Counted from the stretch's first letter, positions 1 through 26,859 are shown. The stretch is 51,194 bases of DNA from an uncultured Spirochaetota bacterium (GCA_964460545.1 CAYWUT010000007.1:1-51194), one strand, 5' to 3'. Translations and numbers: made by a program. Notes: generated from the sequence alone by a model not told the origin.

Positions 1-89
1 CTTAAGTATGTGAAAGCTCTACATCCTGCATATTTCTTGAAACTCGAATCAGGCAATTGCTTTATTTTTCGATTGTGAAAGGAGGGGGA

Positions 90-641
90 ATGCTGTCTGA
101 GCTCATACGGAAGAGGAGAGCGTACCGATCGCTGAAGCCGGTGCGCATTACGAATGACATGGTTGAGGATATGGCGGAAAACGCCGGGCTTTCGGCTTCC
201 TGTTTTAACAACCAGCCCTGGCGTTACGTGTTCGTGTACGGGAAGGAGAAGCTTGCGGAGTTGAAGGAGGCACTGGCGAGAGGAAACGCGTGGGCGAGGA
301 AGGCTTCGCTTATCATTGCCGTTTGCAGCGCCAAAGAAATGGACTGCAGTATAAAGGGGAGGGACTACTACCTGTTTGATACGGGAATGGCAACGGCTTT
401 TATTCTGCTCCGGGCCGTGGAAATGGGACTTGTCGCCCATCCGATTGCCGGTTTTAACGAGGAATCCGTAAAGGAAATCCTGGCCGTGCCCGCTGAAATG
501 CAGGTAATAACACTGGTCATCGTCGGCAGACACGCCGATGAAATCGATCCGGACCTTTCCGAGCAGCAGGCTGCGAGTGAGAAGGAAAGACCCGAACGCC
601 TGCGGCTCGAAGATTATGTCTTTATCGATACGTGCGCTTAA
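90..641 (+). CDS. Nitroreductase family (FMN-dependent) protein
   Basis: RRAYR, SASCFNNQPWRYVFV and DTGMATAFILLRAVEMGL motifs typical of the nitroreductase fold; ATG 90 follows GGAGG (track start TTG 57 not preferred). Confidence 0.85.
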   Translation: MLSELIRKRRAYRSLKPVRITNDMVEDMAENAGLSASCFNNQPWRYVFVYGKEKLAELKEALARGNAWARKASLIIAVCSAKEMDCSIKGRDYYLFDTGMATAFILLRAVEMGLVAHPIAGFNEESVKEILAVPAEMQVITLVIVGRHADEIDPDLSEQQAASEKERPERLRLEDYVFIDTCA

Positions 642-646
642 TGTTC

Positions 647-1108
647 TCAATCCTGGGTCAGGATGTCGTCATCATAGAGACGCTCGAAGTAGAGCTTGTG
701 CCTGCTCTCCTCGGATGCGAGCTTCTGGAATAGAACACGCATGTCCGGATCCATGGTTCTGCCCGCGAGATCACTGTACAGTTTAAGCGAAGCCTCTTCC
801 CTCTTCATTGCCGTGATGAGAATATCCTGATAGGGCATGCTCCCGGACACTTCCACAGAGACCGTATAATCGCTGATGTGCAGATCCTTAATCCGGGGTA
901 TGTCGATTTCCTCGACCACTCCTTTTCCTATGTTCTCCAGAATGGTGATATGGCCGATCTCCATGAGCTCGAATTCGCGGATAAGCTTCTTTTTATCCGA
1001 GAAGGAAGCCTCCTTCCCGAGATTCCGGTAGAATTCGACAGCCTCTTTTTCCCTTTCAATGGCGAAATTGATGATCTCCCTGAACCTTTCTCCAATACTG
1101 CCTTCCAC
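647..1108 (-). CDS. Ferritin-like diiron protein, rubrerythrin family, without a rubredoxin domain
   Basis: Two E..E-x-x-H repeats (EREKEAVEFY...EIGH; KREEASLKLY...EESRH); GTG 1108 follows GAGGT, alternative TTG 1123. Confidence 0.8.
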   Translation of the reverse strand: MEGSIGERFREIINFAIEREKEAVEFYRNLGKEASFSDKKKLIREFELMEIGHITILENIGKGVVEEIDIPRIKDLHISDYTVSVEVSGSMPYQDILITAMKREEASLKLYSDLAGRTMDPDMRVLFQKLASEESRHKLYFERLYDDDILTQD

Positions 1109-1157
1109 TTTAAATAACCTCAACTTTTTGAATTTAAAACGGTGGATTTATGGTTTT

Positions 1158-1319
1158 CTAACTTTCCGGAGAGAACGCGTCCTTTCCTGCACCGCATTCA
1201 GGGCACACCCAGTCGTCCGGAATATCTTCGAATGAAGTCCCGGGATCGATTCCTCCATCGGGGTCACCCGCGGCGGGGTCGTAAACGTAACCGCATACAT
1301 CGCACACATACTTTTTCAT
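1158..1319 (-). CDS. rub: Rubredoxin (53 aa), absent from the ORF track
   Basis: Manual translation [53 protein letters not shown]; two CxxCG knuckles; AGGAG RBS at 1326-1330. Confidence 0.97.
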
Positions 1320-1938: not shown

Positions 1939-3048
1939 TCAGGCGAATTTATCGTAGTATATAAGTTCCTCCGGAATCCCCTTGTCCAACAGCACCTTGA
2001 CCGTGGCGTCTATCATGCCCGGACTGCCGCAGAGATACGCCTCGAGGTTGTCGCCCGATTTTACGTGCTTGCTCAGGACCTCCGTAATGAGCCCCGTTTC
2101 GCCCTTCCAGTTGTCCTCGGGCTGCGGATCGGAAAGGGCGGGTATGAAGGTGAAACCGGGGAGACGGGTTTCCAGGTCTTTCATCTCATCCAGGAGGAAG
2201 AGGTCCCGCACCGCCCGGGCGCCGAAGAAATAGCGCGCCTTTCTAGGATTTTCCCGCTCCGCCATGGTATAGAGTATCGACTTGATGGGCGCCATGCCTG
2301 AACCGCCGGCGATGAAAACGATATCCCGGTCGGTTTCCCGAAGGAAAAACTCGCCGTACGGCCCGTTGACAATGACTTTGTCGCCCTCCCGCAGGTGTTC
2401 GAAAACGTAGGTTGTGCATATGCCGTTCGGAACGAGGCGGACCTCGAGCTCGATCTCGTTTCCGCGGGAAGGCTGGGAGGACATGGAATAGGCCCGGTAA
2501 ACGGATTCCGGGGTAAGCTCGTACTCGGGCACCTGGAACTGTATGTACTGTCCGGGTCTATAGCTGATGGTATCGGGCTCCACGAGCTTCAGGGTCACCT
2601 GTTTGATGTCATAGGTGAGGTCCACGAGGGAGGCTACTTCCGTGACGTATTCCCGCACGTTGAAGAGCTCTTCCGGTATCCTGATGCTGATGTCTTTTTT
2701 CAGCTTGAGCTGGCACGAAAGGCGGATGTTTTCAGCTTTTTCCTCATCCGATATCCAGGGGAGCTCGGTAGGGAGGTAGTCGCCGACGTCGGACGTGACC
2801 TTTACCTTGCACAGCCCGCACGACCCCCTTCCTCCGCACGCGGAGGGGATGAAGATTTTCTCCTCCATGAGCGACCCGAGCAGGGGTTTCCCTCCCGCCA
2901 CGGTTACCTGCTTCTCATCGTTGATCGTCACCGTGACGTCTCCGTAATTGGCGATAGTCGCGTCCGCAATGACCATGAGCACGGCGAGAAAGGTCGAAAC
3001 TCCGCATATCGCTCCGATACCGATCAACAGCTGTGCGGCGGCTCCCAT
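1939..3048 (-). CDS. nqrF: NqrF-like NADH:2Fe-2S/FAD oxidoreductase with N-terminal membrane anchor
   Basis: N-terminal TM helix; CGGRGSCGLC...RLSCQ 2Fe-2S motif; RAYS FAD motif; AGGSGMAP, FGAR, YLCGSPGM and C-terminal DKF NAD-binding FNR motifs. Confidence 0.85.
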   Translation of the reverse strand: MGAAAQLLIGIGAICGVSTFLAVLMVIADATIANYGDVTVTINDEKQVTVAGGKPLLGSLMEEKIFIPSACGGRGSCGLCKVKVTSDVGDYLPTELPWISDEEKAENIRLSCQLKLKKDISIRIPEELFNVREYVTEVASLVDLTYDIKQVTLKLVEPDTISYRPGQYIQFQVPEYELTPESVYRAYSMSSQPSRGNEIELEVRLVPNGICTTYVFEHLREGDKVIVNGPYGEFFLRETDRDIVFIAGGSGMAPIKSILYTMAERENPRKARYFFGARAVRDLFLLDEMKDLETRLPGFTFIPALSDPQPEDNWKGETGLITEVLSKHVKSGDNLEAYLCGSPGMIDATVKVLLDKGIPEELIYYDKFA

Positions 3049-3072
3049 ATGTCCTCCATGGATTACGCTAGG

Positions 3073-3666
3073 TTATGTTATTTTGATCATACCCGAGAAG
3101 CCCATGAATGCAAGGGCCATAATTCCCGCTATGATGAGCGTTATCCCCGCGCCCGCGAGGCCCTTGGGCACGCGAGAACGGACCATCTTCTGGCGGATGC
3201 CGGCCATGGCCATGATGGCGAGCGCCCACCCGATGCCGCTTCCGAGCCCGTAAAAGAGCGAGTTGACGAAGGTGTAGTTTCTGATAACCATGAAAAGGCT
3301 GACGCCGAGTATGGCGCAGTTCACGGTGATGAGGGGCAGAAATATACCGAGCGCGGCGTAGAGCTTGTCCGATACCCGTTCTATTACCATTTCAACGAGC
3401 TGCACGAATGCCGCGATGATCACGATGAACACGATGTATCGGATATAAACGAGATCGAGAGGAACGAGTATATAGCGGTAGGCGAGCCAGTTGAGAACGG
3501 ACGTTGCCGTCATGACGAATACCACGGCCGTGCCGAGGCCCGCGGAGGTGCTCACTTCACGCGATACGGCGAGAAAGGAGCACATGCCCAGATAATTGGT
3601 CAGCAGGATGTTGTTCGTGAAAATCGCGGCGAAAAATATGGCGTAGAAAGCGACCTGTCCGTTCAT
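3073..3666 (-). CDS. nqrE: NqrE/RnfA family membrane subunit
   Basis: NNILL..YLGMCSFL and FLPLITVNCAILG motifs; ATG 3666 overlaps the upstream TGA (ATGA coupling); real gene lies within track ORF 3073..4152. Confidence 0.88.
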   Translation of the reverse strand: MNGQVAFYAIFFAAIFTNNILLTNYLGMCSFLAVSREVSTSAGLGTAVVFVMTATSVLNWLAYRYILVPLDLVYIRYIVFIVIIAAFVQLVEMVIERVSDKLYAALGIFLPLITVNCAILGVSLFMVIRNYTFVNSLFYGLGSGIGWALAIMAMAGIRQKMVRSRVPKGLAGAGITLIIAGIMALAFMGFSGMIKIT

Positions 3667-4280
3667 TTTTTTCCCTTTTCCTCCTTTCTCGCGTTGTATC
3701 CCTTGACGACCCAGATGAAGATGGCGAGCATGAAAAAAGCCCCGGGAGCCATGATCATGATGGACCAGTTGATCCACCAGTCTCCGAGAACGGTGAATCC
3801 CCATATGGAGCCCGACCCGAGGAGCTCCCTGAGGAAGGCGATGATGAGAAGCACGTACGAATAGCCGAGCCCGGAAGCGACACCGTCGAGAAATGAGAGG
3901 CCCGGCGGATTCGACAGGGCGAAGGCCTCGGCCCGTCCCATGATGATGCAGTTCGTAATAATGAGACCCACGTAGGGGCCGAGCTGCCGCGAAACGTCGG
4001 GCATGTACGCCTTGAGTACAATGTCCACGATGATGACATAGGATGCGATGATCAGGGTTTCGACCATCATCCGTATGCGCGAGGGGATGTACCGACGCAT
4101 CAGGGATATGGTGAAATTGGAGAGGCCGGTCACGAATATGAGGCCGACGCACATCACCACCGTGTTCTTCAGCACGTTCGTGACCGCCAGGGTGGAACAG
4201 ATACCGAGAATCTGCGCGAACACGGGATTGTTCGCTCCCAGGTCGTCGGTAAATACTTTCTTGATTTTGAATGCCTCCAT
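3663..4280 (-). CDS. nqrD: NqrD/RnfE family membrane subunit
   Basis: NNPVFAQILGICSTLAVT, IPSRIR, GLIITNCIIMGRAEAFA, APGAFF motifs; AGGAG RBS before ATG 4280. Confidence 0.88.
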   Translation of the reverse strand: MEAFKIKKVFTDDLGANNPVFAQILGICSTLAVTNVLKNTVVMCVGLIFVTGLSNFTISLMRRYIPSRIRMMVETLIIASYVIIVDIVLKAYMPDVSRQLGPYVGLIITNCIIMGRAEAFALSNPPGLSFLDGVASGLGYSYVLLIIAFLRELLGSGSIWGFTVLGDWWINWSIMIMAPGAFFMLAIFIWVVKGYNARKEEKGKK

Positions 4281-4388
4281 GGAAACTCCTTCAGGCGGGG
4301 ATTCCCGCGACGGCCGTTTGTTTCGAAGCCGTGCCGCCCTGCGTTTCACTCGCACGCGGACGCCGTTGCGGACGCCTTTGCGTGTGCA

Positions 4389-5021
4389 TTACTCGTCCTT
4401 GAACGCCACCTTTACCCTCTCCAGGCCGGTGTTCATGATATACTCAACGGCGGCGGTCGAGTAGGTAGCGCCGGTGATAGCCTGGAATTCACCTTCATCC
4501 GTCTCATCGCCCTCCGCCACCGAAATGAGGGGAGGTTTCTTCCCGATGAACTGGTCTTTAAACCACTTCTCCGATATTCTTCCGCCCAATCCGGGTGTTT
4601 CGTTCTGGTCTATGACCTCGAATCCGGTGCACGTCTCCAAACGGCTGTCGTATCCGATGATGCACGTGATGTCCCCCCAGAGACCGGGGCCGGTGATATT
4701 CAGCACGTAACTTTGAACGGCCGACCCGTCCGGGCTCGTGACCTCATACAAAAGCTCCCCCGCCGCGCTGACTTCCCTTACGCGGCTGTTATACAGTCCG
4801 TCCACCTCCCGAGGGTCCTCGGGGGCCGCGATTCCTCCGCTCTCCAGCACCGCGCGCTTCAGCTTGATCGTTTCGTTCAGCTTGATCGTATCCTTGGTCA
4901 CCGTGTAGATCACGCTCGTAATTGAGATGAAAACGAGCGTGATCACGAGCATGAACAGAATGGGGAAAAGCCTCTTTCCGGCACGTCCCTCTTTTTTCTT
5001 ATTTTGCGCCGCATCGCTCAT
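4389..5021 (-). CDS. nqrC: NqrC/RnfG family FMN-binding subunit
   Basis: One N-terminal TM helix; GPGLWG, ETPGLG and ITGATYS (flavinylated Thr) motifs; ATGA coupling to upstream gene. Confidence 0.88.
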   Translation of the reverse strand: MSDAAQNKKKEGRAGKRLFPILFMLVITLVFISITSVIYTVTKDTIKLNETIKLKRAVLESGGIAAPEDPREVDGLYNSRVREVSAAGELLYEVTSPDGSAVQSYVLNITGPGLWGDITCIIGYDSRLETCTGFEVIDQNETPGLGGRISEKWFKDQFIGKKPPLISVAEGDETDEGEFQAITGATYSTAAVEYIMNTGLERVKVAFKDE

Positions 5022-5983
5022 TTCGCATTCCCCCGGCTCTTCGACTTCTTCATGTAGTAATCGAGGAGGGGCGCGAACATGTTCGTCGTGAGAATCGCAA
5101 ACATGACCCCTCCGGGCCAGATGGAGAACGATCTGATGATAACGGTCAGGATCCCTATGACGCTCCCGTAAATCCACCGCCCCGTATTCGTCGTCTGGGA
5201 CGCTGAAACCGGATCGGTCGCCATGTAGAGCATGCCGATCATATAGCCGCCTCCCAGTACGGCGCTGACCGTATCGATCACCCCGGGTGCCCCCGAGAGC
5301 CGGAGCACCGTATTCAGCGCGATGGTTGACGCGAAGGCGGACACAACGATTCTGTAGTTGGCATACTTTTTAATCATCAGGTAGAGTCCGCCGAGCAGGA
5401 GGAGCAGAGCGCTCGTTTCACCGAGGCAGCCGGAGATGTTTCCGAAAATGAGGTTGATGCGGTCCACGGGCGAGCCCCCCGCGATTACGGCCATGGGAGT
5501 GGCCGAGCTGACCGCATCGGAGATAAAGGTCCCGAAACCCCCGGGAATTCCTCCAATCGGGTCGAGCCAGCCTCCGTTCATCCAGCCCCCGAAGCTTATG
5601 TAGATGAACGCGCGTCCGGTCAGGGCCGGATTGAAAATGTTCCTCCCGAACCCGCCGAAGGCCATCTTGCCGAGGGCTATGCCGAAAACAATTCCCACTA
5701 CGGCCATCCACACGGGAAGGGACGGGGGAAGGGAAAGGGTGAAGAGCATGGATGAAACGAAGACCGCCGAAGATACGGGCTCCCTGTAGTAGGCCCGCAG
5801 AAAGACGTACTCCGTGAGGAAACCGGCGACCGCCACAACCGTGATGAGGAGAAGGCTCCTCCACCCGAAGAAGTATATGGAGGCCAGTGAAGGGGCTATG
5901 AGCGCGTACAACACTCCCACGTTCGACTTTTGCCACCGTATGAGCTTCTGTTTTTTCTTTTCGGCCTGCGGTTCTTTTCCCAT
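5018..5983 (-). CDS. nqrB: NqrB/RnfD family membrane subunit (321 aa, RnfD-length)
   Basis: FGGFGRNIFNPALTGRAF, DAVSSATP (FMN-Thr), GCLGETS, MATDPVS and NMFAPLLD motifs. Confidence 0.88.
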   Translation of the reverse strand: MGKEPQAEKKKQKLIRWQKSNVGVLYALIAPSLASIYFFGWRSLLLITVVAVAGFLTEYVFLRAYYREPVSSAVFVSSMLFTLSLPPSLPVWMAVVGIVFGIALGKMAFGGFGRNIFNPALTGRAFIYISFGGWMNGGWLDPIGGIPGGFGTFISDAVSSATPMAVIAGGSPVDRINLIFGNISGCLGETSALLLLLGGLYLMIKKYANYRIVVSAFASTIALNTVLRLSGAPGVIDTVSAVLGGGYMIGMLYMATDPVSASQTTNTGRWIYGSVIGILTVIIRSFSIWPGGVMFAILTTNMFAPLLDYYMKKSKSRGNAK

Positions 5984-6281: not shown

Positions 6282-7070
6282 TTATGGTAACGGATCTATA
6301 TCCGTGATGAGGATTAGCCGACCGCGCGGCCGGACGAGCCGCGCCGGAAATGACGGTTCGAGCTCGGCGGGATTGAGCAGCCTTTTGAGCACCTCCGATT
6401 TGGATTCACCGGATACGAGAAATATGACCATGCGCGCCGCGTTGATGAGGGGAAGCGTGATGCTGACCCTGTTTTTTACCGGTGCGTAATCGGGGGCCGT
6501 TACGGGTATGAAAAACCGCCCGTCTTCCTCGGTGGGATTTCCCGGATAAAGCGAGGCCGTATGACCGTCATCTCCCACCCCGAGGAGGATGACGTCGAAT
6601 GCGGGATAGGGGAGGCCGCCGGTTTTCTCTCCTGTCCCGGGTTCTTGGTCCACTGACGGGTTCCGGTCTGAAAAAAAAGTCCTGATGGTTTCTTCGTATG
6701 CCGCCGCGGCCGCACGGTTCGAGGAGAGCCCGGTCGGGACCGGGAAGATGTTTTCGTTTTTTATCGGGACCCGCGACAGCAGGAGGTCGAAAGCGGCAGA
6801 TGCATTGGACTTCGGATCGTCAAGCGGAACGCATCGTTCATCCCCCCAGAATATGGAAGTCCTGTCCCAGGGAAACCCCTCAGGATGTTCTGCGAGCTCC
6901 CGAAAGAGTATTTTCGGCGTACTGCCCCCTGAAAGCACGAGGGTGAAGGTACCGCGCCGCGCCACCGATTCGTTCGCGGCCTTTTCCATGATGCCCGCCG
7001 CGCGAGCGGCCATATCGCCGCTGCTGGTGCACGAAAAAACCTCGATGGGGTCCTTCCGTCCGTTACACAT
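6282..7070 (-). CDS. pgl: 6-phosphogluconolactonase
   Basis: [37 protein letters not shown]; ATG 7070 overlaps the zwf end by 8 bp. Confidence 0.93.
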
Positions 7071-8607
7071 ATATCCAGTCCCTCCCGTCCCTATCGAGCA
7101 GTTTCTCCGATTCCGCGGGGCCCCAGGACCCGGCAGGATAGGTGAGGATTCGCGCCGCGTTTTTATTTTCTTCGCTCTCCCAGCTCTCGAGTACCGGTGT
7201 GATGAGAGACCATGAGACCCGCATATCGTCGTGCCGTATGAAAAGGGTCTGGTCTCCAAGCATGGAATCGAGCAGGAGGCGCTCGTACGCCTCGGGGAGT
7301 CCTTCCGTGATTACGTCGCTGTAGTGAAAGTCCATTTCAAGGGTATCCATGCACAGTTTCGGGCCGGGATGCTTGGCCTGTATGGCGAGCGATATTCCCT
7401 CCTCGGGCTGAACCCTGAAGATAAGGATATTGGGATTCAGGTCGTCTGAGGTGAGCGGGCGAAACATGGAATGGGGTACGGGTTTGAAAGTTACGATAAT
7501 CTTGCTCGTTCTACGGGCCAGGCGCTTGCCCGCACGCAGGTAGAAGGGGACGCCCTGCCATCGCCAGTTATCCACCATGACACGGGCCGCGACGAATGTC
7601 TCGATCCTGGAATCCGGATTTACACCCTCCTCGTCCCGGTAACCGGGTACCGATTCGCCGTTTACCTTTCCGGTAACGTACTGCGCGCGGACGAGGTCTT
7701 CCGTACCGTCCCCGCCAAGCGGTCGCACTGCCCTGAGAAGCTTCACTTTCTCGTCGCGCACCCGGTCCGCGTCGAAGGAAATGGGATGTTCCATGGTTAC
7801 GAGGGAAAGCATCTGGAGCATGTGGTTCTGGAACATGTCTCGCAGAAGCCCGGCCTGCTCGAAGTAGCCGGCGCGATGGCCGACGCCGTCGGATTCGGCG
7901 ACCGTGATCTGGACATTGTCGATATACCTTCGGTTCCAGATCGGCTCGAATATGGCGTTCGCGAACCGGAAGAGGAGTATGTTCTGCACCGTGTCCTTGC
8001 CCAGGTAATGGTCAATCCTGTATATCTGCCTTTCCGAGAGGACCTCGTTGAGTGAGCGGTCGAGCTCCATTGCGCTTGTCAGATCCCTGCCGAAGGGTTT
8101 CTCAACGATCACGCGTGCCTCGATGAGGGGCCCCGAGTCGTCGATCGTGAGGCGGGAGTTTCCCAGCCCCTCAATGATCTTCAGGTTGACGCCCGGAGGG
8201 GTCGCGAGATAGAAGATGTGGTTCCTCTCTGGAAGGCAGCGTTTGTCGAGCGTTTTAAGACGAGACCCGATGTCCCTGAAGAGCGAGGGGTCGCCGTAGT
8301 CTCCTGAAACGTAGAAACAGCGGTCAATGAACGGTTTGAGCTCGGATTCGCCCGCGTTCTGAGATTTTATCAACGCCTCCCGCGCCCGCTCCCTGAAGGT
8401 TTCGTCGGTGAGCCTGCTTCTTGCGCAGCCGAGAATGTAGAACTTGCCGGGTAAAAGTTTTTTTCTATACAGGTTAAAGAGCGAGGGGATGAGCTTCCTG
8501 GAGGTAAGGTCCCCGGACGCGCCGAAAATGACGAATCCCGCGGGTTTGGGGATCTCCTCCACGCAGAAGGAGCCCCTGATTTTTACGGAGCCGTGCATGG
8601 GATCCAT
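7063..8607 (-). CDS. zwf: Glucose-6-phosphate 1-dehydrogenase
   Basis: [50 protein letters not shown]. Confidence 0.97.
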
Positions 8608-8629
8608 AGGAGTTCTCCGGAGGGATTGA

Positions 8630-9538
8630 TTACTCGTCAGCCGATCTCGTATCGTGACCGCCGAACTCTTTCCTGAGCGCAGCGAGCAGCCGGTCGGAGA
8701 AGAGATTGGGATTCCGGGATTGGAAGCGCTTGAACAGGGCATGGGCGATGGTGGTCGCGGGCACACCCGTTTCCACGGCCTGCTGAACCGTCCATCGTCC
8801 CTCGCCCGAGTCGTCGACGAAACCCCGTATCTTATTCAGACCCGGGTCATTCCGAAACGCCGTCTCCAGCAACTCGAGCAGCCAGGAGCGGATAACGCTC
8901 CCCTGGTTCCAGAGATGTGCGATCTTCTGATGATCGAGTGTCTCCTTATACGGTGAAGCGTCCAGTATCTCAAAACCTTCTCCGTACGCCTCCATGAGCG
9001 CGTACTCGATACCGTTGTGAACCATCTTGACGAAATGTCCCGCGCCTGAGGGGCCGCAGTAGAGGTAGCCGCCCTCGGGGGCGAGCGATTTGAACAGGGG
9101 CTCGACACGTTCGAAATCCTCTTTATTACCGCCCACCATGGTACAGTACCCGAGCTGAAGCCCCCATATTCCGCCCGAGATGCCGGCGTCCATGTAACGG
9201 ATGCCGATATGCTTCAATTCTAGCAACCGCCGCATATCGTCCTTGTAATAGGTGTTTCCGCCGTCTATGATAAGGTCTCCCTCGGTGAGGAAGGTGGAGA
9301 GCTTGCGTATGTACGTATCGGTTACCTCGCCGGCCGGAAGCATCACGAGCACGGTTCGGGGAAGATCGAGCTTCTCCACGAGCTCCTCCACCGATGAAGA
9401 GGGAACGGCGCCCTCCTTTGCCGCGGATTCGACCTTTTCCCCGGTACGGTTGTACACAACGACCGTATGCCCCCCCTGGAGGAGACGGCGGGTCATGTTG
9501 AACCCCATTCTGCCGAGACCGATGATTCCAATCTGCAT
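8630..9538 (-). CDS. gnd: 6-phosphogluconate dehydrogenase, decarboxylating (short type)
   Basis: [46 protein letters not shown]. Confidence 0.96.
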
Positions 9539-11861: not shown

Positions 11862-14060
11862 CTATGCATTCCGAGCCCTGGGGGCGATTTTTCTCCGCTT
11901 GCTTGTCTCCAGGAGCTTCCACTGCACGGTCGGAATTTCGTCGATATCCTCTTTCGGGATGAGGAAAATCTTCGCGTCCGAGGAGGGCACGGCCGTGAGC
12001 ATTTCAGGCTCATCGAACAGTATCGTCTCCTCCCCGAAAAAGTCACCGGAATGAAGCTCCGCGACGAGGCTGCCGCCTGAGGAGAGGTTGATTTTTCCCT
12101 GCTCCACGATAAAGAGCGCCGGCGGATCCTCGGGTTTGACGGGCTCGTCAGCCGCGTAGGACTTTCTCGTCATGATTCCCGCTATCTCGTTCTGTATGGG
12201 GCAGGAGACCATCTCGCCGAAAAGCCAGGTATTTTGTAAAAACCGCCTGTTTTCGAGCACGCGCCTGATCGTATCGTAGAGGTAGTTTCGCTTGATGAAG
12301 CTGATGTAGAGGTCCGAGGGTATTTTCAGTGCCCTGATGTAGCTCGCGGCCCGGTATGTCCGTGTAGTCTTCTCGCCGCTCAAGGCCGAGAGCTCACCCA
12401 CGATGGAACCGGCCGACAGCATGTTCCGAATATCGGTTTCCGCATCGATGAATTCCACTACCCCGCTCAGCAACAGGAAGATGTCCTTGTTTACAATTCC
12501 CCGTTTGATGATGATCGATCCTATATTGTGCGATACCACGGGGCAGTTCATCAGCATGTGCAGGTCGTGCATGGACGCCTTGGGGAAGTAGGACCTGAGG
12601 TGGTAGAAGGCGGAACGCATGGAATAATCCTGCTGCGCCGGAATGAGAACGTCCTCCATGCCGAAGGTCGCGTTCGCTCCGATCTCCTTCTGAGAATCCG
12701 TGAGCGGCACCGAGGTATGGCTCAGCACTATCTTGGGAGAGGTGTCGTTTACGAAATCTTCGGCTTTGCCGTGTATGAGGCCCCCGCCTATGTCGATCTT
12801 CTTGATATCAACGGGCGTGAAATAAATTTTCTTCACATTGTCATAGAATTCCTGTGACACCCCGCTCTTTTTCGGATCGTCCGTTATCATTCCTTTCAGG
12901 ACGTCGAGTGATACGATATCCGCGAGGTGTGCGTACGTCTTGTATCCGCCGCCCCAGAGTGTGCGAAAGAAGAATATGCTCGTTTCAACCGGATGGGGGG
13001 AGAACACGGGCATGACCTCGAGTCCCTTGATCGAGTTCCATCGGTTGAACTTCAAGTCGAAAATCTTGAAGTACCGCTCGAACCGCTCCTCTTTTATGGA
13101 CATGAGCGCTGAGAGTTTTTTCATAACCGACACGCGTACAAGCTTCGGCGCATAGTACTTGATCTTGTGGTCCGACCGGACGAGGGTGGTGAGACCGGCG
13201 AAGTGGTCGTCGTGGACATGACTGTGGAAGATACCCTCGATCTCGTTGACGCTGATTCCGAGCGCCGTGAGGCTGTATAAGATGTTGGGTCCGGCGTCCA
13301 GAAGGTAGATCTTCCCCTGATAGGTGAGTATGCTGCCCATGCAGGGTCGGTTCGTGTCCCAACCGTCCCCCTCGCCGATATGGATCACTGAGAAGTACTC
13401 ACGTCTGATTTCGTGAAACCCGAGATTGTAGGAGGGTTCGTATTTCTGGTTGGGCGCAAGGTTCAGGTCAACGGGCACGGTTTCGTCCTTGTAAGAGAAC
13501 TCGTACACGTTGAATGCGGTACGGCGAATCGTGACACCTCCTCTCAGCTCGACCGGGTCCTCACGCACGATACGGAAATCGATGAGCTCTTCGGTTTCGC
13601 GTATATTGTCGAATGCGAATTTCAGCTTCAGGCGAAACATATCCTGCGCACAGTCATCGGGGACACCGGTTTTGTGGATCTCCTCCATTGACTTCAGACC
13701 GTAATTTCCACGGTATATGTACTGACTCTGGGCGTTGACCTGGTCTTCCGTACCGATGAGCATGGGCTTTATTCCCGTGTTGTTCGGATGGTTCGGGAGA
13801 AGAATGCCCTGTCTGTAGAACATCTGGAGAACCGGAAACTCGGCGAGATTTGAGAAGCTTCCCTTTTGCACGGGTACGTCGGAGAGGAGTATGGCGTTTG
13901 GTCCTGTCTCGAAGGTGACTCCGTTTTTTTCCTTTGATACGATGAGCCCTCTTTTCATGAGGTGCTTCACACTGTCGGCGGGACAGCCGCAGAGCACGTA
14001 GAGGTTTGCTTCAGGGATTTCGACGTAGTATACGCCGCTCGTTACCTCGATTTTCTCCAT
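11862..14060 (-). CDS. Metallo-beta-lactamase-fold protein with two C-terminal cyclic-nucleotide-binding domains
   Basis: LLDAG, HSHVHDDH and PHPVET MBL motifs; GSIVGELSAL...RT and GDFFGEETIL cNMP-domain motifs. Confidence 0.75.
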   Translation of the reverse strand: MEKIEVTSGVYYVEIPEANLYVLCGCPADSVKHLMKRGLIVSKEKNGVTFETGPNAILLSDVPVQKGSFSNLAEFPVLQMFYRQGILLPNHPNNTGIKPMLIGTEDQVNAQSQYIYRGNYGLKSMEEIHKTGVPDDCAQDMFRLKLKFAFDNIRETEELIDFRIVREDPVELRGGVTIRRTAFNVYEFSYKDETVPVDLNLAPNQKYEPSYNLGFHEIRREYFSVIHIGEGDGWDTNRPCMGSILTYQGKIYLLDAGPNILYSLTALGISVNEIEGIFHSHVHDDHFAGLTTLVRSDHKIKYYAPKLVRVSVMKKLSALMSIKEERFERYFKIFDLKFNRWNSIKGLEVMPVFSPHPVETSIFFFRTLWGGGYKTYAHLADIVSLDVLKGMITDDPKKSGVSQEFYDNVKKIYFTPVDIKKIDIGGGLIHGKAEDFVNDTSPKIVLSHTSVPLTDSQKEIGANATFGMEDVLIPAQQDYSMRSAFYHLRSYFPKASMHDLHMLMNCPVVSHNIGSIIIKRGIVNKDIFLLLSGVVEFIDAETDIRNMLSAGSIVGELSALSGEKTTRTYRAASYIRALKIPSDLYISFIKRNYLYDTIRRVLENRRFLQNTWLFGEMVSCPIQNEIAGIMTRKSYAADEPVKPEDPPALFIVEQGKINLSSGGSLVAELHSGDFFGEETILFDEPEMLTAVPSSDAKIFLIPKEDIDEIPTVQWKLLETSKRRKIAPRARNA

Positions 14061-14182
14061 ACGTATTACCCCGTCTTCACAGTATTCCTTATAATAAGTA
14101 TATACCATATGAAATATTTAACAGCGATTTTATATATTTATAATTATTATGTATTTTCTCTTCATGTGGTGCCGAAGGGCTC

Positions 14183-17941: not shown

Positions 17942-20893
17942 ATGAAGAAAGATAAGCAGATAAAAACTGTCGACTATCAAGTTCTCTTTCAGAATGCACC
18001 TGATATGCTTTTTCTGCTCGATGAAGATTTGCACGTGCTCTTCGTCAATGAAACAGCTTCTGCAGCGCTTGGACTGGATAAGGGGGAAATCATGGGTTCG
18101 GATTTTCTCAGCCTTGTTTACAGTGCGGATCAAGACCTCATCCGGAGTATCGTTCACCCTGTTGATGAGAAGAACAATAACCACGAGTTCCGGCTGGTAC
18201 ACGGGAACGGATCGTTTTTCCGGGTATGCGGGACGTCGAGCAGGACGGTTGCCGGGGGTGAAGGAAGCCTGCTTGTTGCGTGCAGGGGTATGGATGACTA
18301 CTGGGATCTAGGGAATACGATCGAAGAGGGTGTGCGTCGTTTCCCTAACGTCTTCGAGTATTCCCCGGACGCTATATTCATCGAGGACATAAATCGGCGT
18401 ATACTCGATGTAAATCCGGCGGCCTGCCGCCTTCACGGAATGACGCGTGATGAGCTGATCGGTATGGACGCCGCGGACCTTGTGCCGCCGGAGTATCGCG
18501 ATCTCGTTGCGGATGATTTCACGCTGCTCGCAAAAGACAAGGTCGAGCACATCGAAAACTTCAGTATCGGACCGGACGGCAGCCCGATCCCGGTCGAGAT
18601 CCGTATGAGCAGGATCCTGTATAATAACCGTCAGGCCCTTCTCCTCCACGTTCGGGAAGTTAGACAAAAAAGAGAGGCGGAGGAGCAAATACGGGCGCTC
18701 GCAAGATTCCCGAATGAAAATCCAAACCCCGTTCTTCGTCTGCTGAATGACGGTACCCTGATATATGCGAACGAAGCGGCCCTGCTACTACTTGAAGAAT
18801 GGCAATGCAGTGTAAATGACAAGGCCCCCGTCCATGTTATTCGTCATGTGTACGATGCCTGTGAAAAAAAGAAAAGTATCGAACGTGAGATAATGTGCGG
18901 GGACCGCGTCTGTTCCCTCGTGTTTACGCCCGTCGAAGGTGAGGATTATGTAAACATCTACGGGCTCGATATTACGGAGCAGAAAAAAAGCAGGGAGGTT
19001 CAGCAGCGTCTCATCTCTCTCATAGAGAGCAGCAACGAGTTTATCGGACTGACCGACATGAAGGGAAGGGTCCTCTATCTCAATGAGGCGGGTATGAATC
19101 TCTGCGGCGTTGATACAATTAATGGAGATAAGTCCCTCACCATAGAGAATTTCGTACCGGAGGAGGGTAAGGCATACCTCCGCGACATCCTGATGTCGTC
19201 CCTTTTAAAAGACGGTCATTTTAAAACCCGCAAGTATATCAGACATTTGAAGACCGGTGAGCGTATCGATGTTGAGATAAATGTCTTCCTGATAAATGAC
19301 GGAGGGGGGAATCCCACTCACATCGCAGTCGTCATAAACGATATACGCGACCGGATAAGAAGGGAACGCGAGATAAGGGAAACCGAGGAGAGGTTCAGGA
19401 GGCTTGTCGGGACTGCGCCCATAGGCATCCTCCTTGCCGACTCCACCGCGAATATCCTCGTTGTGAACGATGCATGCGCGCAAATTTTCGGATATTCCGT
19501 ACAGCAGATGAAGGAAAACAATTTTCTGGACCTGATACCCGAAGATTCCCGTGAGCTGGCGCTCGATATTCGCGAGAAGCTCAACAGCGGTTCCGATATG
19601 CGCAACAGGGAATTCCTGATTACGAAACAGGATGGAGGAAACGTTCCTGTTGAGGTGTCCGTGTCCACGATAAGGGATGAGAAAGAAAAGGTTACAAACT
19701 ATATCGCGCTCATTCGTGATATTTCCCAGCGAAATGAGCTCCAGCGCCAGCTCAACCAGTCCCAGAAGATGGAGGCGGTCGGTTTGCTCGCGGGTGGTGT
19801 GGCACACGACTTCAATAATATTCTGAGCGTCATCATCGGGTATAGTGATTTTATACTTACAAAACTCGATGATGATGATACGCTGTCTCCCTTTGTACAG
19901 GAGATCAGAAAGGCCGGAAACAGGGCGGCATCTCTCACCCACCAGCTTCTCGCGTTCAGCAGGCGTCAGATGTTGAGATCCAGGGTGCTCGATCTCAATG
20001 TACTCGTTTCGGATATGGAGAAAATGCTCCAACGTCTCATCGGCGAGGACGTCGAGCTCATTACCAATTTGGACGGATCGGTGAGCAAGCTGAAGGCGGA
20101 CCACGGCCAGATCGAGCAGATCGTCATGAACCTTGCGGTGAACGCACGTGACGCGATGCCCGAGGGCGGAATCCTGACCATAAAGACGGAAAACAGGACG
20201 GTGGACGAGGAACACTGCAGGGTCGTCCCCGATGCATCCACGGGCGTTTTCGTGCTCCTTTCCCTGTCGGACACGGGTTTTGGCATGGCGGACGATGTAA
20301 GCGCGCATATATTCGAACCCTTTTTCACAACCAAGAGAGAGGGAGGAACCGGCCTCGGTCTCTCAGTCACCTATGGTATCGCCAAACAGCACGGAGGTTG
20401 GATTGAAGTCAGAAGCACTCCCGGCAAGGGCTCCACATTCGAAGTGTACCTGCCCGCGTTGCTGCATGAGGAAGCGGAAGAGGTCGTAATCGATATTCCG
20501 GACGATACCGTTCGCGGAAAGGGAGAGCGGATACTCGTGGTTGAGGATGAGGATATGCTTCGTACCTTCGCACAGGGCGCGCTCTCGGACAAGGGTTATT
20601 CGGTCCTGACAGCGTCATCCTATAGTCAGGGAATCGATCTGTTCAGGAAAGAGGAGGGCCGTTTTGATCTTGTTTTCAGTGATGTGGTCCTTCCTGATAA
20701 AACGGGTCTCGACCTCGTAAACGAATGCAGGTCGATCAAACCATCCGTCAAGGTACTTCTTACAAGCGGCTATCTCGACCAGAAGTCGCAGTGGAACGAG
20801 ATCAGGAACCGCGGGTACCGGTTCATGGAGAAGCCCTATTCGCTCGTTGAAATGTTTTCCACAATCGATGATTTGCTGAGAAATCAAGTGTAA
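17942..20893 (+). CDS. Cytoplasmic hybrid sensor histidine kinase (about 5 PAS, HisKA, HATPase, REC)
   Basis: Repeated PAS starts (APDMLF, SPDAIF, NPNPVL, SNEFIG, APIGIL); AHDFNN H-box; NLAVNARDAM; DTGFG; FEPFFTTK; GTGLGL; VVEDE...SDVVLP receiver. Confidence 0.93.
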   Translation: MKKDKQIKTVDYQVLFQNAPDMLFLLDEDLHVLFVNETASAALGLDKGEIMGSDFLSLVYSADQDLIRSIVHPVDEKNNNHEFRLVHGNGSFFRVCGTSSRTVAGGEGSLLVACRGMDDYWDLGNTIEEGVRRFPNVFEYSPDAIFIEDINRRILDVNPAACRLHGMTRDELIGMDAADLVPPEYRDLVADDFTLLAKDKVEHIENFSIGPDGSPIPVEIRMSRILYNNRQALLLHVREVRQKREAEEQIRALARFPNENPNPVLRLLNDGTLIYANEAALLLLEEWQCSVNDKAPVHVIRHVYDACEKKKSIEREIMCGDRVCSLVFTPVEGEDYVNIYGLDITEQKKSREVQQRLISLIESSNEFIGLTDMKGRVLYLNEAGMNLCGVDTINGDKSLTIENFVPEEGKAYLRDILMSSLLKDGHFKTRKYIRHLKTGERIDVEINVFLINDGGGNPTHIAVVINDIRDRIRREREIRETEERFRRLVGTAPIGILLADSTANILVVNDACAQIFGYSVQQMKENNFLDLIPEDSRELALDIREKLNSGSDMRNREFLITKQDGGNVPVEVSVSTIRDEKEKVTNYIALIRDISQRNELQRQLNQSQKMEAVGLLAGGVAHDFNNILSVIIGYSDFILTKLDDDDTLSPFVQEIRKAGNRAASLTHQLLAFSRRQMLRSRVLDLNVLVSDMEKMLQRLIGEDVELITNLDGSVSKLKADHGQIEQIVMNLAVNARDAMPEGGILTIKTENRTVDEEHCRVVPDASTGVFVLLSLSDTGFGMADDVSAHIFEPFFTTKREGGTGLGLSVTYGIAKQHGGWIEVRSTPGKGSTFEVYLPALLHEEAEEVVIDIPDDTVRGKGERILVVEDEDMLRTFAQGALSDKGYSVLTASSYSQGIDLFRKEEGRFDLVFSDVVLPDKTGLDLVNECRSIKPSVKVLLTSGYLDQKSQWNEIRNRGYRFMEKPYSLVEMFSTIDDLLRNQV

Positions 20894-20997
20894 AGCAGCG
20901 GGAATGCTTCCGTACGGAATGAAATCATTTACTCCATCCCGGTTGCCGGGCTATAATGGAACGGTAAGGTGGTATGAAAAGCCTTGAGGGGGTTCCC

Positions 20998-21735
20998 ATG
21001 GACCGGAAACAGTTCAGAAAACTGCTCATTGCCGCCGTGCTCTCGGCATTTGCCGGAGGAGCATTGACGGGACTTGTTCTCAACGCGCAGGTTGCTTTTG
21101 GACAGCTTCGGGAAAAGGTGATCAGGGCCGAGAGCTTCCAGATCGTCGACGGGGAGGGGAGGGTCGTTTCCGAATTCGGCACGGGGTCGGACGGCTCGAC
21201 CAGGATCGGTTTCTGGGACAAAAACGGTCTCTACCGTGCCGGTTTCGGGATATTCGAAAACGGTGACGGCGCGCTCACCTTTTATGATGATGAGGGGAAT
21301 GCGGTTTCCGAGTACGGTATAGCACCGGACGGCATCGTCAGGATGGGTTTCTGGGATAAGGCCGGATCGTTCAGGGCCGGTCTCGGCATGTATGTAAACG
21401 GTGACGGCGCGCTTACCTTTTATGACCGTTCCGGACGGCCGGTTACGGAATACGGCGTCAATCCCGAGGGGGAAGTCCTCATCAGCTTCTGGAGTGAAGA
21501 GGGTATAAGCAGGGCCGCTCTCGGAGTTTACGGGGAGAACGATACCGCACTCACCTTCTACGATCGGGAGGGGAGGGCCGTTTCCGAGTACGGTATCGCG
21601 CCTGACGGTTCCTCCAGGATCGGCTACTGGGATGAAAGCGGGCTTTACAGGGCCTTTTTCGGCAGTATGGGGGAAACGGATAACACCCTTACCTTCTTCG
21701 ATGAAGAGGGAACGGCCCTGTGGAGTAAGCCGTAA
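20998..21735 (+). CDS. Exported/membrane-anchored protein built from four 46-aa beta-rich repeats
   Basis: Hydrophobic N-terminus; repeats start at 21172, 21310, 21448, 21586 (138-bp period); GAGGGG RBS before ATG 20998. Confidence 0.8.
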   Translation: MDRKQFRKLLIAAVLSAFAGGALTGLVLNAQVAFGQLREKVIRAESFQIVDGEGRVVSEFGTGSDGSTRIGFWDKNGLYRAGFGIFENGDGALTFYDDEGNAVSEYGIAPDGIVRMGFWDKAGSFRAGLGMYVNGDGALTFYDRSGRPVTEYGVNPEGEVLISFWSEEGISRAALGVYGENDTALTFYDREGRAVSEYGIAPDGSSRIGYWDESGLYRAFFGSMGETDNTLTFFDEEGTALWSKP

Positions 21736-21951
21736 TCGATGTTCCCTCAGGCAGTCTATTACTATAACCGTACGAACCGCTTTTTCACCGTAAGTCCGCA
21801 CAGAGAAGAGTCCTTCGCTATCCTCATTTATTTTAGCTGTCCTCCGCATCTTCGGACGACTATTGTTTTTTTATTAATCTCAAGTACTCACAGCGCGGAA
21901 GTATAACCGGGGGATTACCGGTAAAAAATACTGACAGGGATGAGGTTCGTG

Positions 21952-24900
21952 ATGAAAAAGATATTTGAATTCTTTGCCGGACGGCATATCCTTGCCACGC
22001 TCTTCACTATTTCCATCCTGCTGCTTGGAATAAATGCGCTTCGGGTGCTTAAGCGTGATATCATCCCGGAGGTGGATTTCGGACAGCTTATCATTACAAC
22101 CGTATATCCCGGCGCATCACCGGAGGACGTGGAGCTGAACGTAACGAACAAGATCGAGGATGAGCTGGGGGGCGTGACCGGTATCGAACGGGTCACCTCG
22201 ACCTCCATGGAAAATATGTCCGTCATTGAAGTTACCGTGGATATCGACGCAAAGGATATCGAGAAGGTCAAGAGCCGCATTCGTGAGGCGGTGGACAGGG
22301 TCACCGATCTGCCCGGGGAGGTGACCGCTTCTCCCCTGATAGAGGAGGTCGACACCTCCCAGATATCGATTATCGAAGTCGGAGTTGCCGGTGATATTCC
22401 CTATGGGGAGCTGCGCGAAATAGCGAGGCGGTTTGAGCGGAAGCTCAAGGAGGTTTCCGGTGTTTCTAAGGTCGGAAAATACGGATACCGGGCGCGGGAG
22501 ATACAGGTCGAAGTCAATCCCGCCCGGCTCGATCGTTACCAGATCCCGTTTTCAGAGATTATCCGTGCAATTCAAGCGCGCAACATTCGCCTAACGGGCG
22601 GCACCTTCGAATCCTTTACAAGTGAAAAAAACGTGGTCACCATGGCCCAGTTCCGCGAGCCTCAGGAGGTCGGAGACGTGATTGTCCGCTCCACCTTCGA
22701 CGGACCTCTTATCAGGGTAAGGGATCTGGCGATCGTGAAGGACGGTTTCGAGGACCCTGAGATCATTTCACGGGTGAACGGTAAGGAGGCGATCTCGTTT
22801 CTCGTTTACAAGACATCGGATGCGGACATCATCAGGACCGTGCGCGCCGTAAAGAAGATGGTGCGGGAGGAATCGGGAAAGGGCCTGCTTGCAGGGTACA
22901 TAAGCGAAGAGGAGAAAAAGGGGAATTTCGATTTTCCCGGTTCCATTAAGCGAGTATTCGGCCTCGAGAGGAATGAGGGAGGGGTTTACAGGTACGGACC
23001 CGTTCAAATTATTTACGCGCAGGACCAGTCGATTCTGGTCCAGGACCGATATCAGATCGTTTTAACGAACGGTGCGGTGGGGCTCGTGCTTGTGATTCTC
23101 GTACTCACTTTCTTCCTCAATCTGCGCACCGCCTTCTGGGTGGCCATGGGAATCCCCATATCGATTACGGGCGTTTTTTTTCTTCTTCCCCTTTTCGGCG
23201 GCTTTCTCGATACCATATCGCTCGCGTCGCTTGTTCTCGTTATCGGCATCATCGTGGATGACGGTATTATCATTTCGGAAAATATATCCTACCGGCGATC
23301 CATGGGCGACGACCCGCTCCAGGCCGCCACAAACGGCGTAAACGGCGTTTTCCTCCCCGTGTTCACCACCGTGCTTACCACTTTCCTCGCTTTCGCACCC
23401 ATGCTGTTCGCCAAGGGTGTGGTGGGTAAGTTCGTCTTTGTCATACCGCTCACCGTAAGCCTCGCGCTCTTCATATCGCTCGGGGAGGCGCTTTTTGCCC
23501 TTCCAGCGCATTTAAAGCACGGGTTGGAGCGGTCCACAAAGGGTGCGGCTCGCCAGGCGGTACGCCAGTGGTTCAACGGGCTCAGGTCTTTCTACCGGAA
23601 GATTGCGGTCGTTTTTCTCAAGTTCCGGTATCCCCTCGTCGTACTTTTTATCGCAGTGCTCGGCTTAGCCCTCTACTATGCGCGGTCCAATATGGAGTTT
23701 CTCCTCTTTCCCTCCTCCGGGGCAGACACGCTGATCGTGGAGATCGAACTTCCGACGGGATCTCCGCTGGCATTGACCTCGGAGAAGACGAAGGAACTGG
23801 AGCGGATCGTACAGTCACTGCCGGAAAGCGAGCTCCAAACATTCGTTACTCGAATCGGTACGCTCGAATCGGTGCAGGGGAGGGCTGAGAACTACGCGCA
23901 TCTCGTGGTCGGCCTCACGCCGTATACGGAAAGAGTCCGAACCGCCGACGATATCGTGGAGGCGCTCAGAAGGGATTCGGACGGGCTTGAGGGCTTCGAG
24001 CGGATCAATTTCATGGTGCTTCGGCAGGGACCGCCCGTGGGCAAGCCCATAACGCTCCGGGTGACCGGGGCCGACGACGGGCGGCGGGCCGAGGTCGTTG
24101 ACAGGGTGGTGGAATACCTCGGTTCCGTGGATGGGGTGAAGGACATCGACCGGGACGATAAGAAGGGAAAGGAAGAGATACGCGTCAACATAAATTACCG
24201 GCGGCTTGCCCAACTCGGGCTGACGGTCGCTGACGTGGCGAGCAACGTCCGGTACGCCTACGACGGACAGGTCGTTACGTCACTTCGGGACGGCGACGAA
24301 GATATCGATTTCCGTATACGGCTCATGGAGAAGGCGCGCAAGGACACCGGGTATTTAAAAAACCTCGTTGTTCCCAACAACCGGGGACGGCTTATAAAGT
24401 TGAAAGAGTTCGCTTTACTCGAAACGGCGGCGGGGCTCAACACGATCAAACACTTCGACAACATACGAACGACAACCGTGACCGCGGACGTCAATCAGGA
24501 TGTCACGACGCCGGTCGCGGTCGTGGTGCCCCTCCTGCGAAATCTGAACGTCGATGAGGATTATCCCGGAATCACCCTTACCGCGGGCGGGGAAGCCGAG
24601 GAGAGCATGGAATCATTCATGACGCTTTTTCTCACTTTTATCATCGCCTTCATCGGGATATATTTTCTGCTGATACTGCTTTTCAACTCTTTTACCCAGC
24701 CCTTCCTCGTGCTCGCGGCCATTCCGTTCGGTATTGTGGGGGTTATATTTGCGCTCGCCATTCATCGTGAACCGCTCAGCTTCATTGCCATTATCGGGAC
24801 CATCGGCCTGGCCGGCGTTGTGGTGAACGATTCTCTCGTGCTCGTCAGTCATCTGAACGATCTGAAGAAGGATAAACCGGACATGCCCATGCGCGACCTG

Positions 24901-25159: not shown

Positions 25160-25188
25160 TTGACATCCGGGTTCAGAGGTATTAATAT
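25160..25188 (+). promoter_or_regulatory. Sigma70-type promoter of the Moco operon
   Basis: TTGACA, 17 nt, TAATAT. Confidence 0.7.
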
Positions 25189-25194
25189 CCAAAA

Positions 25195-25217
25195 CGTTAT
25201 TCATTTTCTGAATAACG
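25195..25217. promoter_or_regulatory. ModE-type operator palindrome
   Basis: CGTTATTCA-TTTTC-TGAATAACG, perfect 9-bp arms; CGTTAT-N11-ATAACG spacing resembles ModE boxes; abuts the RBS of the modE-like gene. Confidence 0.7.
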
Positions 25218-25221
25218 AGGG

Positions 25222-25563
25222 ATGGTCTTCAGAGTGGATGACCTTGTGGTCAAGTCGAAGGTCTGGTTCGAGAAATCCGGAAAGCCCGTATTCGGCGAGG
25301 GAAGGTACCGTATACTCAAAGCGGTGGAAACGGGCGGTTCGATCTCGGCGGCGGCCCGCGCGCTCGGCATGTCTTTCAGGGACGTCTGGTACAGCGTGGA
25401 CCGCGCGGAGAAGAACCTCGGCGTTCGGCTTCTCGTCCGAACGAGAGGGGGAAGGGGAGGGGGCCGTTCACATCTCACCGGCGATGCGAGGTTCCTCATC
25501 GGTGAGTATGAACGCGTACTCAGGGAGCGGGCCGGGTCTCCGAACCGGGTGGTACGGGAATAA
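25222..25563 (+). CDS. modE: ModE-family winged-helix regulator, DNA-binding domain only
   Basis: GEGRYRILKAVETGGSISAAARALGMSF...LG..LLVRTRGG.GGG.S.LT; no Mop/TOBE domain. Confidence 0.8.
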   Translation: MVFRVDDLVVKSKVWFEKSGKPVFGEGRYRILKAVETGGSISAAARALGMSFRDVWYSVDRAEKNLGVRLLVRTRGGRGGGRSHLTGDARFLIGEYERVLRERAGSPNRVVRE

Positions 25564-25567
25564 GCCA

Positions 25568-26761: not shown

Positions 26762-26781
26762 GGTGGCGACGGTGATGAGGT

Positions 26782-26821
26782 GGTGACAGTTCCTTTTGTG
26801 ACAGTTCCTTTAGGGACAGTT
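26782..26821. repeat. Dispersed GTGACAGTTCC REP-like element, copy 1
   Basis: GGTGACAGTTCCTTTTGTGACAGTTCC (27 nt) is the exact reverse complement of 33781-33807; a third degenerate unit GGGACAGTT follows. Confidence 0.8.
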
Positions 26822-26859
26822 ATCATATTCGGGTATTACACTGTGGAATGGAGGAATCC

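Follow-up and report, generated by a model that had tools for sequence, protein, structure and literature searches.

RNF and NQR are membrane redox pumps in which electrons follow a U-shaped path, from the cytoplasm to the 2Fe-2S cluster of NqrD and NqrE (RnfA and RnfE), on to the flavin mononucleotide (FMN) of NqrC (RnfG) outside, and back to the cytoplasm through the FMN and riboflavin of NqrB (RnfD) (PMC11889175, PMC12174285). Of the membrane cofactors this riboflavin comes last, on the cytoplasmic side; electrons exit through RnfC in RNF and reduce quinone in NQR (PMC11889175, PMC12174285). Clusters of nqrBCDEF lacking nqrA (A-less clusters) have appeared in genome papers since 2014, their acceptor being called unknown, from Pseudothermotoga lettingae and P. 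thermarum, Clostridium ultunense and Ca. Izimaplasma (PMC4148951, PMC5924567 and PMC6256511, the last two covering C. ultunense and Ca. Izimaplasma, respectively). An evolutionary study of NQR (PMC4014512) and a 2025 review of RNF and NQR (PMC12174285) did not treat this variant, and a survey of flavinylation, in which NqrF served as the mark of NQR, thereby lumped the A-less clusters with NQR (PMC8238504). Here we describe an A-less operon on a 51,194-nucleotide (nt) stretch from an uncultured Spirochaetota bacterium (GCA_964460545.1 CAYWUT010000007.1:1-51194; hereafter the window, whose numbering is used for its features). The unit consists of six genes, B-C-D-E-F-X, of which the sixth, X, is strictly conserved. 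Judging from gene fusions and neighbourhoods, we give about an even chance to the reading that they encode a membrane complex of the RNF/NQR redox-pump family in which X is the output module and rubredoxin the physiological acceptor.

An earlier note on this DNA, made from the sequence alone, had drawn attention to the A-less set, an arrangement that had already been reported (PMC4148951, PMC5924567). In the literature searched, no mention was found of a conserved X gene, of the unmatched fold of its product or of its link to rubredoxin and to enzymes acting on reactive oxygen species (ROS). The five core genes lie co-directionally on the minus strand with the boundaries drawn in that note, and its B-C-D-E-F order and two ATGA couplings were recovered, the B stop overlapping the C start at 5021-5018 and the D stop the E start at 3666-3663. 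Downstream of F, across a gap of 81 nt, follow X, rubredoxin and rubrerythrin, and then a convergent nitroreductase gene (lengths in amino acids, aa):

5018..5983, minus strand: B subunit (NqrB/RnfD homologue, 321 aa), PF03116 (NQR2_RnfD_RnfE)
4389..5021, minus strand: C subunit (NqrC/RnfG homologue, 210 aa), FMN_bind domain, N-terminal membrane anchor, ITGAT FMN-threonine
3663..4280, minus strand: D subunit (NqrD type, 205 aa), PF02508 (Rnf-Nqr), nqrD equivalog cut-offs passed
3073..3666, minus strand: E subunit (NqrE/RnfA homologue, 197 aa), PF02508 (Rnf-Nqr), two conserved cysteines
1939..3048, minus strand: F subunit (NqrF type, 369 aa), Fer2+FAD_binding_6+NAD_binding_1, TIGR01941
1396..1857, minus strand: X, sixth gene (153 aa, soluble), conserved open reading frame (ORF) without a Pfam, NCBIfam or PDB match
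1158..1319, minus strand: rubredoxin (53 aa), PF00301 with E=1e-25, 76 nt 3' of X
647..1123, minus strand: rubrerythrin/ferritin-like protein, 34-49 nt past rubredoxin (the public gene call starts at 1108 and gives 153 aa), probable peroxide-reducing end enzyme
57..641, plus strand: nitroreductase-family gene, convergent, adjoining the rubrerythrin end of the cluster

The cofactor-binding residues of the core were compared with canonical Nqr loci (Klebsiella, Parabacteroides and Leisingera) and Rnf loci (Bacteroides, Shewanella, Subdoligranulum and E. coli). The FMN-threonine motifs (SSAT, TGAT) and the four D/E cysteines, which the earlier note had described as intact, are conserved in these alignments. 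In B, the FMN threonine T162 (SSAT) is invariant among NqrB/RnfD sequences, as are N115, N118 and D257, the equivalents of the riboflavin-site residues N200, N203 and D346 of Vibrio cholerae NqrB (as defined in PMC9293633), and E58 is retained. The threonine of C (ITGAT) lines up with the SGAT/TGAT motif of NqrC/RnfG. Both cysteines of E and C28 and C111 of D are invariant, and the latter pair would ligate the intramembrane 2Fe-2S cluster. F has a membrane helix at its N terminus and, besides it, a 2Fe-2S ferredoxin domain (C-x5-C-x2-C...C), a flavin adenine dinucleotide (FAD) domain (RAYS) and a nicotinamide adenine dinucleotide (NAD) domain (GGSGMAP); it scores 317 bits against TIGR01941 (cut-off 295), and among solved structures it matches NqrF only, with 248 bits to that of V. 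cholerae. The WPGG motif of B, also singled out earlier, is indeed present in the window but is confined to the window lineage, relatives reading WPEG, WSEG, WPAG, FTEG or FPEG, and this variability rules it out as a meaningful change of the family.

Judged by family-model and pairwise scores, the subunits form a mosaic in sequence affinity, in keeping with the earlier description of an Nqr/Rnf hybrid. Among the NCBIfam Nqr equivalogs, D passes (257 vs a cut-off of 235; 249 vs 245) and B (231 vs 414; 203 vs 350), C (67.5 vs 144) and E (232 vs 248) fall below; among the Rnf subfamily models, B passes RnfD (228 vs 207), and the scores for RnfG (75.6 vs 102), RnfE (173 vs 213) and RnfA (226 vs 229) remain below their cut-offs. 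D and F are in these terms Nqr-type, B satisfies only the rnfD model, and C and E satisfy neither set. Searches of the PDB give similarly mixed scores for Nqr vs Rnf, namely 152 vs 143 bits for B, 39-41 vs 46 for C, 205 vs 141 for D and 193 vs 187 for E. B has the length of RnfD and aligns to it from residue 24, whereas its alignment with V. cholerae NqrB does not begin before NqrB residue 133; as noted before, it lacks the longer NqrB N-terminus, about 55 residues, together with an internal insertion. The missing stretch corresponds to Met1-Lys54 of NqrB, which in Vibrio forms the quinone-analogue cavity and contacts NqrA (bioRxiv 10.1101/2022.04.19.488743). The mixed PDB scores and the passing of the rnfD model alone by B agree with the proposal of the earlier note that a five-subunit complex with no assigned acceptor represents an evolutionary intermediate between Rnf and Nqr. 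We consider this very unlikely, as a sixth conserved gene is present, the published Rnf-to-NQR scenario retains RnfC/NqrA throughout (PMC4014512), and occurrence in about five phyla with a dedicated module of its own suggests a functional branch in its own right more than a relic.

The modules by which electrons leave the two described pumps are missing from the locus. The 20 further large ORFs of the window that were scanned, and the called genes adjoining the operon, include no NqrA, RnfC, RnfB or ApbE, and no NqrA, RnfC or RnfB is encoded with the operon in any relative examined (including L008-L011 and L106), in agreement with what had been stated for this locus. The RnfB/RnfC-type 4Fe-4S motif CxxCxxCxxxCP does not occur within or adjacent to any X-type operon, the sole match among X-type loci lying about 4 kb upstream of B in L007; canonical rnf loci contain 4-5 such motifs each. 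X itself is unrelated to NqrA/RnfC (hhalign probability 0.2%). The window system is an RNF/NQR superfamily core that fails the defining features of both NQR (NqrA, the NqrB N-terminus) and RNF (RnfC, RnfB). A canonical complex made whole by an orphan nqrA or rnfC at another place in the genome seems hardly probable: the window spans only 51 kb and published hosts carry a separate full rnfCDGEAB operon, but P. lettingae, P. thermarum and C. ultunense, whose genomes are complete, are reported to lack nqrA, B lacks the NqrA-contacting stretch, and the arrangement is stable across phyla.

The unit had been taken as five subunits, yet the ORF at 1396-1857 proved to be a strictly conserved sixth gene. 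Besides 50 of 50 metagenome loci, X directly follows an nqrF-like gene in six genomes, metagenome-assembled genomes (MAGs) or contigs, in about five phyla: the complete Spirochaetota MAG CP070841.1, two Bacillota MAGs, a Verrucomicrobiota MAG, one more metagenome contig and plasmid pILYOP01 of Ilyobacter polytropus. The metagenome survey yielded 80 loci with X as the query, and the 50 with at least about 950 nt of upstream DNA were scored for the NqrF 2Fe-2S motif C-G-G-x3-C-G-x-C, which was located 0.9-1.0 kb upstream of X on the same strand in every one of them; the profile was built from closer relatives, and this sample is biased to X at 63-76% identity to that of the window. A scan of genome contigs with B gave three loci, and the synteny survey of A-less operons, a comparison that the earlier note had also called for, is composed of the metagenome loci and contig look-ups. 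Because the gene order, with X after F, recurs in more than 50 independent contigs, the operon is real and more than a chance arrangement. X, with 64-76% identity in loci whose B shows 53-57%, is better conserved than B, and it is absent from the seven canonical nqr/rnf loci examined.

X has no family match in Pfam (up to E=10) or NCBIfam and no sequence relative in the PDB by sequence profile search. An AlphaFold2 model based on a 61-sequence alignment is an alpha/beta structure with a predicted local distance difference test score (pLDDT) of 96.9 and a predicted TM-score (pTM) of 0.90, and no fold match to it was found in the PDB by Foldseek (best E 0.2, TM ~0.2). The invariant residues are D28, G87, P92, H128, F130 and G133, and G23, F24, G26, R30, I35, D39, K101, L120, H123, G135, R139 and P142 are near-invariant. 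Grouped at 90% identity the family comprises 857 clusters, and at 50% identity with E<=1e-3 there are 765; as a large protein family without a Pfam entry, it merits a family definition and a solved structure. Two further proteins, P0241 (885 aa; L105 1247-3904) and P0283 (2506 aa), carry three X-domain copies each and belong to no Pfam or NCBIfam family, and their context is uninformative; the contigs of the distant homologues P0385 and P0304 are too short to inform.

The acceptor had been left unspecified in the earlier note, and the natural fusions and gene neighbourhoods of X point to rubredoxin. X is fused to rubredoxin with both rubredoxin CxxC knuckles in frame (P0300, 210 aa), and other fusions join it to rubrerythrin (P0288) and to nitroreductase (P0318). 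The X-rubredoxin fusion forms 22 distinct clusters at 90% identity (207-213 aa, 49-100% identity), and its presence on many contigs rules out an assembly artefact. It stands directly after E-F in L020, and in L106 the operon runs from a flavodiiron protein (ODP/metallo-beta-lactamase plus flavodoxin, 404 aa) through B-C-D-E-F to the X-rubredoxin fusion, with a 12-nt gap 5' of B. Where X is a separate gene, the neighbours are of the same kind. L052 and L060, in which X is 71-73% identical to that of the window, have the order F-X-rubredoxin-flavodiiron protein-rubrerythrin; the Kiritimatiellae MAG locus L006 has rubredoxin 107 nt upstream of B; and L103 has, after X and in this order, a regulator, rubrerythrin, desulfoferrodoxin and rubredoxin. 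CP070841.1 (L008) carries X-rubredoxin-rubrerythrin with a convergent nitroreductase and zwf-pgl upstream, as in the window, and the convergent nitroreductase is common to the window, L008, L052, L060 and L011. Among about 74 scorable metagenome loci, 21 show a rubredoxin motif 100-450 nt downstream of X. The link between X and rubredoxin is accordingly frequent and recurs across distant lineages, though it is not universal. In L024 (3-1827) an X-rubredoxin pair follows not NqrF but a 384-aa protein without a Pfam, NCBIfam or PDB match, and X may also serve other reductases.

Two observations concern what else adjoins X. Downstream of the X-rubredoxin fusion of L020, positions 2965-4969 hold a gene for a fatty-acid desaturase and one resembling those of flavin amine oxidases; oxygen and electron donors of the rubredoxin or ferredoxin type can also be required by desaturases. 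In one sub-lineage (L010 14437-14730, L074 6468-9519), a CsoR-type metal-sensing repressor and a P-type ATPase follow X in place of rubredoxin.

If X is the output module and rubredoxin the acceptor, the following path can be proposed. NADH, rather than NADPH, would reduce the FAD and 2Fe-2S cluster of F, and electrons would pass through the 2Fe-2S cluster of the D/E cysteines in the membrane to the covalent FMN of C outside, to return by way of the covalent FMN and riboflavin of B on the cytoplasmic side. X would dock on the cytoplasmic face of B and present rubredoxin, free or fused, to the riboflavin, a contact proposed because the core ligands are intact while RnfC/NqrA and the NqrB N-terminal stretch are missing. 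Reduced rubredoxin would then deliver electrons to rubrerythrin for the reduction of H2O2 and, in close relatives, also to flavodiiron protein (O2/NO) and desulfoferrodoxin (superoxide). NADH has a potential of about -320 mV and rubredoxin is a one-electron carrier at about 0 mV, a span of about 0.3 V. As this span is comparable to that of NQR, the retained pump core would be expected to export Na+ or H+, and the complex is probably ion-pumping. A broader proposal, which we regard as possible while placing it short of an even chance, is that BCDEF-X constitutes a third RNF/NQR branch, a Na+-pumping NADH:rubredoxin oxidoreductase whose output subunit X has a previously unseen fold. Rubredoxin-dependent reduction of O2, H2O2 and superoxide, by flavodiiron protein, rubrerythrin and desulfoferrodoxin, would on this proposal become a mini respiratory chain that conserves energy in strict anaerobes without quinone, across many phyla.

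Several points weigh against rubredoxin reduction through X. The assignment of the acceptor relies on guilt by association, and for ion translocation homology is the sole ground. Only about 28% of close relatives have rubredoxin alongside, and no rubredoxin was found near the operon in L009, L010, L074, L096, L040 and Ilyobacter, which have other neighbours. The absence of NqrA/RnfC refers to the operon surroundings and to the 51-kb window, a metagenome fragment. No cofactor motif can be recognised in X, in which the one cysteine that is frequent among relatives is a serine in the window, and X holds the operon position of nqrM and apbE in Vibrio and Klebsiella, so that X could be an assembly factor. 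This last point leads to a rival account in which X is a maturation or assembly factor (an NqrM/ApbE analogue) or a regulator and the five-subunit complex passes electrons from B directly to rubredoxin or another carrier; the place downstream of F, which is that of nqrM in Klebsiella, the lack of a cofactor motif and the X-rubredoxin pair of L024 without NqrF are all in its favour. We judge it unlikely nonetheless, given that fusion to three different electron-accepting proteins in separate lineages is not expected of a maturation factor and that X is more conserved than the catalytic B.

NqrA binds no cofactor and has no assigned function or catalytic role (review PMC12174285), and its loss alone therefore does not exclude quinone reduction in B, which is a further point against a rubredoxin acceptor. 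The system might then still be an NADH:quinone (menaquinone) oxidoreductase in which quinone reduction takes place within B, as it does in NQR, and X is a structural stand-in for NqrA. Such an arrangement would agree with the Nqr-type character of D and F and with the direct passage of electrons to membrane quinone in NQR (PMC12174285). A UbiE-like methyltransferase also adjoins X in L005, although the match is generic. Verrucomicrobiota and Kiritimatiellae hosts may, moreover, make menaquinone. B, however, is missing the entire N-terminal part from which the quinone/inhibitor cavity is formed, the authors who described the Thermotogae and C. ultunense hosts proposed a non-quinone acceptor, and the fusions of X to rubredoxin, rubrerythrin and nitroreductase would be left unexplained, which makes quinone reduction distinctly improbable in our estimate. 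None of the rival accounts explains the three kinds of X fusion as simply as an X that hands electrons to rubredoxin.

Comparison with the described systems sets the window complex apart from each of them. With Na+-NQR it shares NqrF-type NADH entry, a D that passes the nqrD model, an E closest to NqrE, the B-C-D-E-F order, the two threonines for covalent FMN, the riboflavin residues and the cysteines of D and E for the 2Fe-2S cluster. Unlike Na+-NQR it has no NqrA, its B is without the first ~55 residues and the NqrB insertion, its C is without the NqrC insertion and its F is about 40 aa shorter; X, which is absent from the canonical nqr loci examined, is present, and the neighbours are rubredoxin-linked enzymes instead of a quinone chain. 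The likeness to RNF (RnfCDGEAB; Acetobacterium woodii 9ERI, Clostridium tetanomorphum 7ZC6) lies in the membrane core, the RnfD-length B that passes the rnfD model, the RnfG-like size of C and the anaerobic hosts. RNF differs in that the window operon contains NqrF and has no RnfC, RnfB or 4Fe-4S motif in or adjacent to it, and the expected direction here would be from NADH to an acceptor of higher potential rather than from ferredoxin to NAD+. The published A-less NqrBCDEF clusters have the same five-gene order and no adjacent nqrA, but their reports mention neither a sixth gene nor a rubredoxin link.

Chains in which a soluble NADH:rubredoxin oxidoreductase (NROR) reduces rubredoxin for flavodiiron protein, rubrerythrin or desulfoferrodoxin operate in Clostridium, Desulfovibrio and Thermotoga. 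The overall reaction proposed here, NADH to rubredoxin to O2, H2O2 or O2-, would be the same, and the same end enzymes occur in the operons; NROR, in contrast, is a soluble, non-homologous flavoprotein that conserves no energy, whereas the window operon encodes a putative membrane complex of RNF/NQR type. The NqrB-NqrF fusion systems (Meheust et al. 2021, PMC8238504) are likewise partial NQR/RNF derivatives without A/C and RnfB, but they are single fused proteins with a proposed role in one-way electron export, and the window system keeps the full D/E and B U-shaped core. The question, standing since 2014, of what the A-less NqrBCDEF of anaerobes reduces now has a testable candidate, rubredoxin via X, and at least one cultured host of A-less BCDEF-X is available in Ilyobacter polytropus DSM 2926. 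Were the proposal true, detoxification of oxygen and peroxide by anaerobes would be coupled to formation of an ion gradient instead of being a pure cost, which would bear on the survival of strict anaerobes in oxic-anoxic transition zones. The RNF/NQR core would then accept interchangeable output modules, namely RnfC, NqrA with quinone, and X with rubredoxin.

The flanks of the operon hold two candidate signals, from a consensus scan for promoters and terminators in which the signal was not above shuffled background and is suggestive at most:

591..611, minus strand: terminator-like hairpin just past the rubrerythrin stop codon
6120..6137, minus strand: perfect inverted repeat with 7-bp arms (ATCACGG-CTCT-CCGTGAT) within the 298-nt spacer from pgl to B, with a T-rich tail and near a TTGAAA hexamer

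Since the hairpin is the only such site on the minus strand from F to the end of the cluster, B to rubrerythrin may form a single transcript; the inverted repeat could be the terminator of pgl or an operator for a B promoter. The genes gnd, zwf and pgl lie directly upstream on the same strand (6282-9538), and pgl is the immediate neighbour of B, as the earlier note had named it (TIGR01198, 1.4e-59); the zwf-pgl pair recurs in this position in the Spirochaetota MAG CP070841.1. This oxidative pentose-phosphate branch could be a reductant supply under oxidative stress. A preference for NADPH, which these neighbours raise, was rejected, as the F segment GAR-x-x-R-D/E resembles NADH-using NqrF and there is no positive evidence for NADPH.

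On the same contig, past window position 1 and beyond the nitroreductase, L001 16287-18436 encodes NifU, ferritin, a regulator of the Fur family that may be PerR, and a second rubrerythrin, and these genes together with the operon surroundings form an iron/oxidative-stress island. Farther along the window, a 748-aa protein (11862-14108, minus strand) combines a metallo-beta-lactamase fold (Anti-Pycsar_Apyc1 Pfam match) with a cyclic-nucleotide-binding domain and may be a phosphodiesterase that is regulated by, or degrades, cyclic nucleotide monophosphates. A hybrid histidine kinase of 983 aa that contains several PAS domains as well as a receiver domain (17942-20893, plus strand) is followed downstream by a 1064-aa AcrB-family efflux transporter (21940-25134, plus strand), a 306-aa minus-strand ORF (20929-21849) lying between them. 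Beyond the transporter, molybdenum-cofactor genes occupy 25160-29578 on the plus strand, comprising a MoeA-like gene (25160-26761), a MoaA-type radical SAM gene (27981-29009) and a gene for a MOSC-domain protein (29108-29578).

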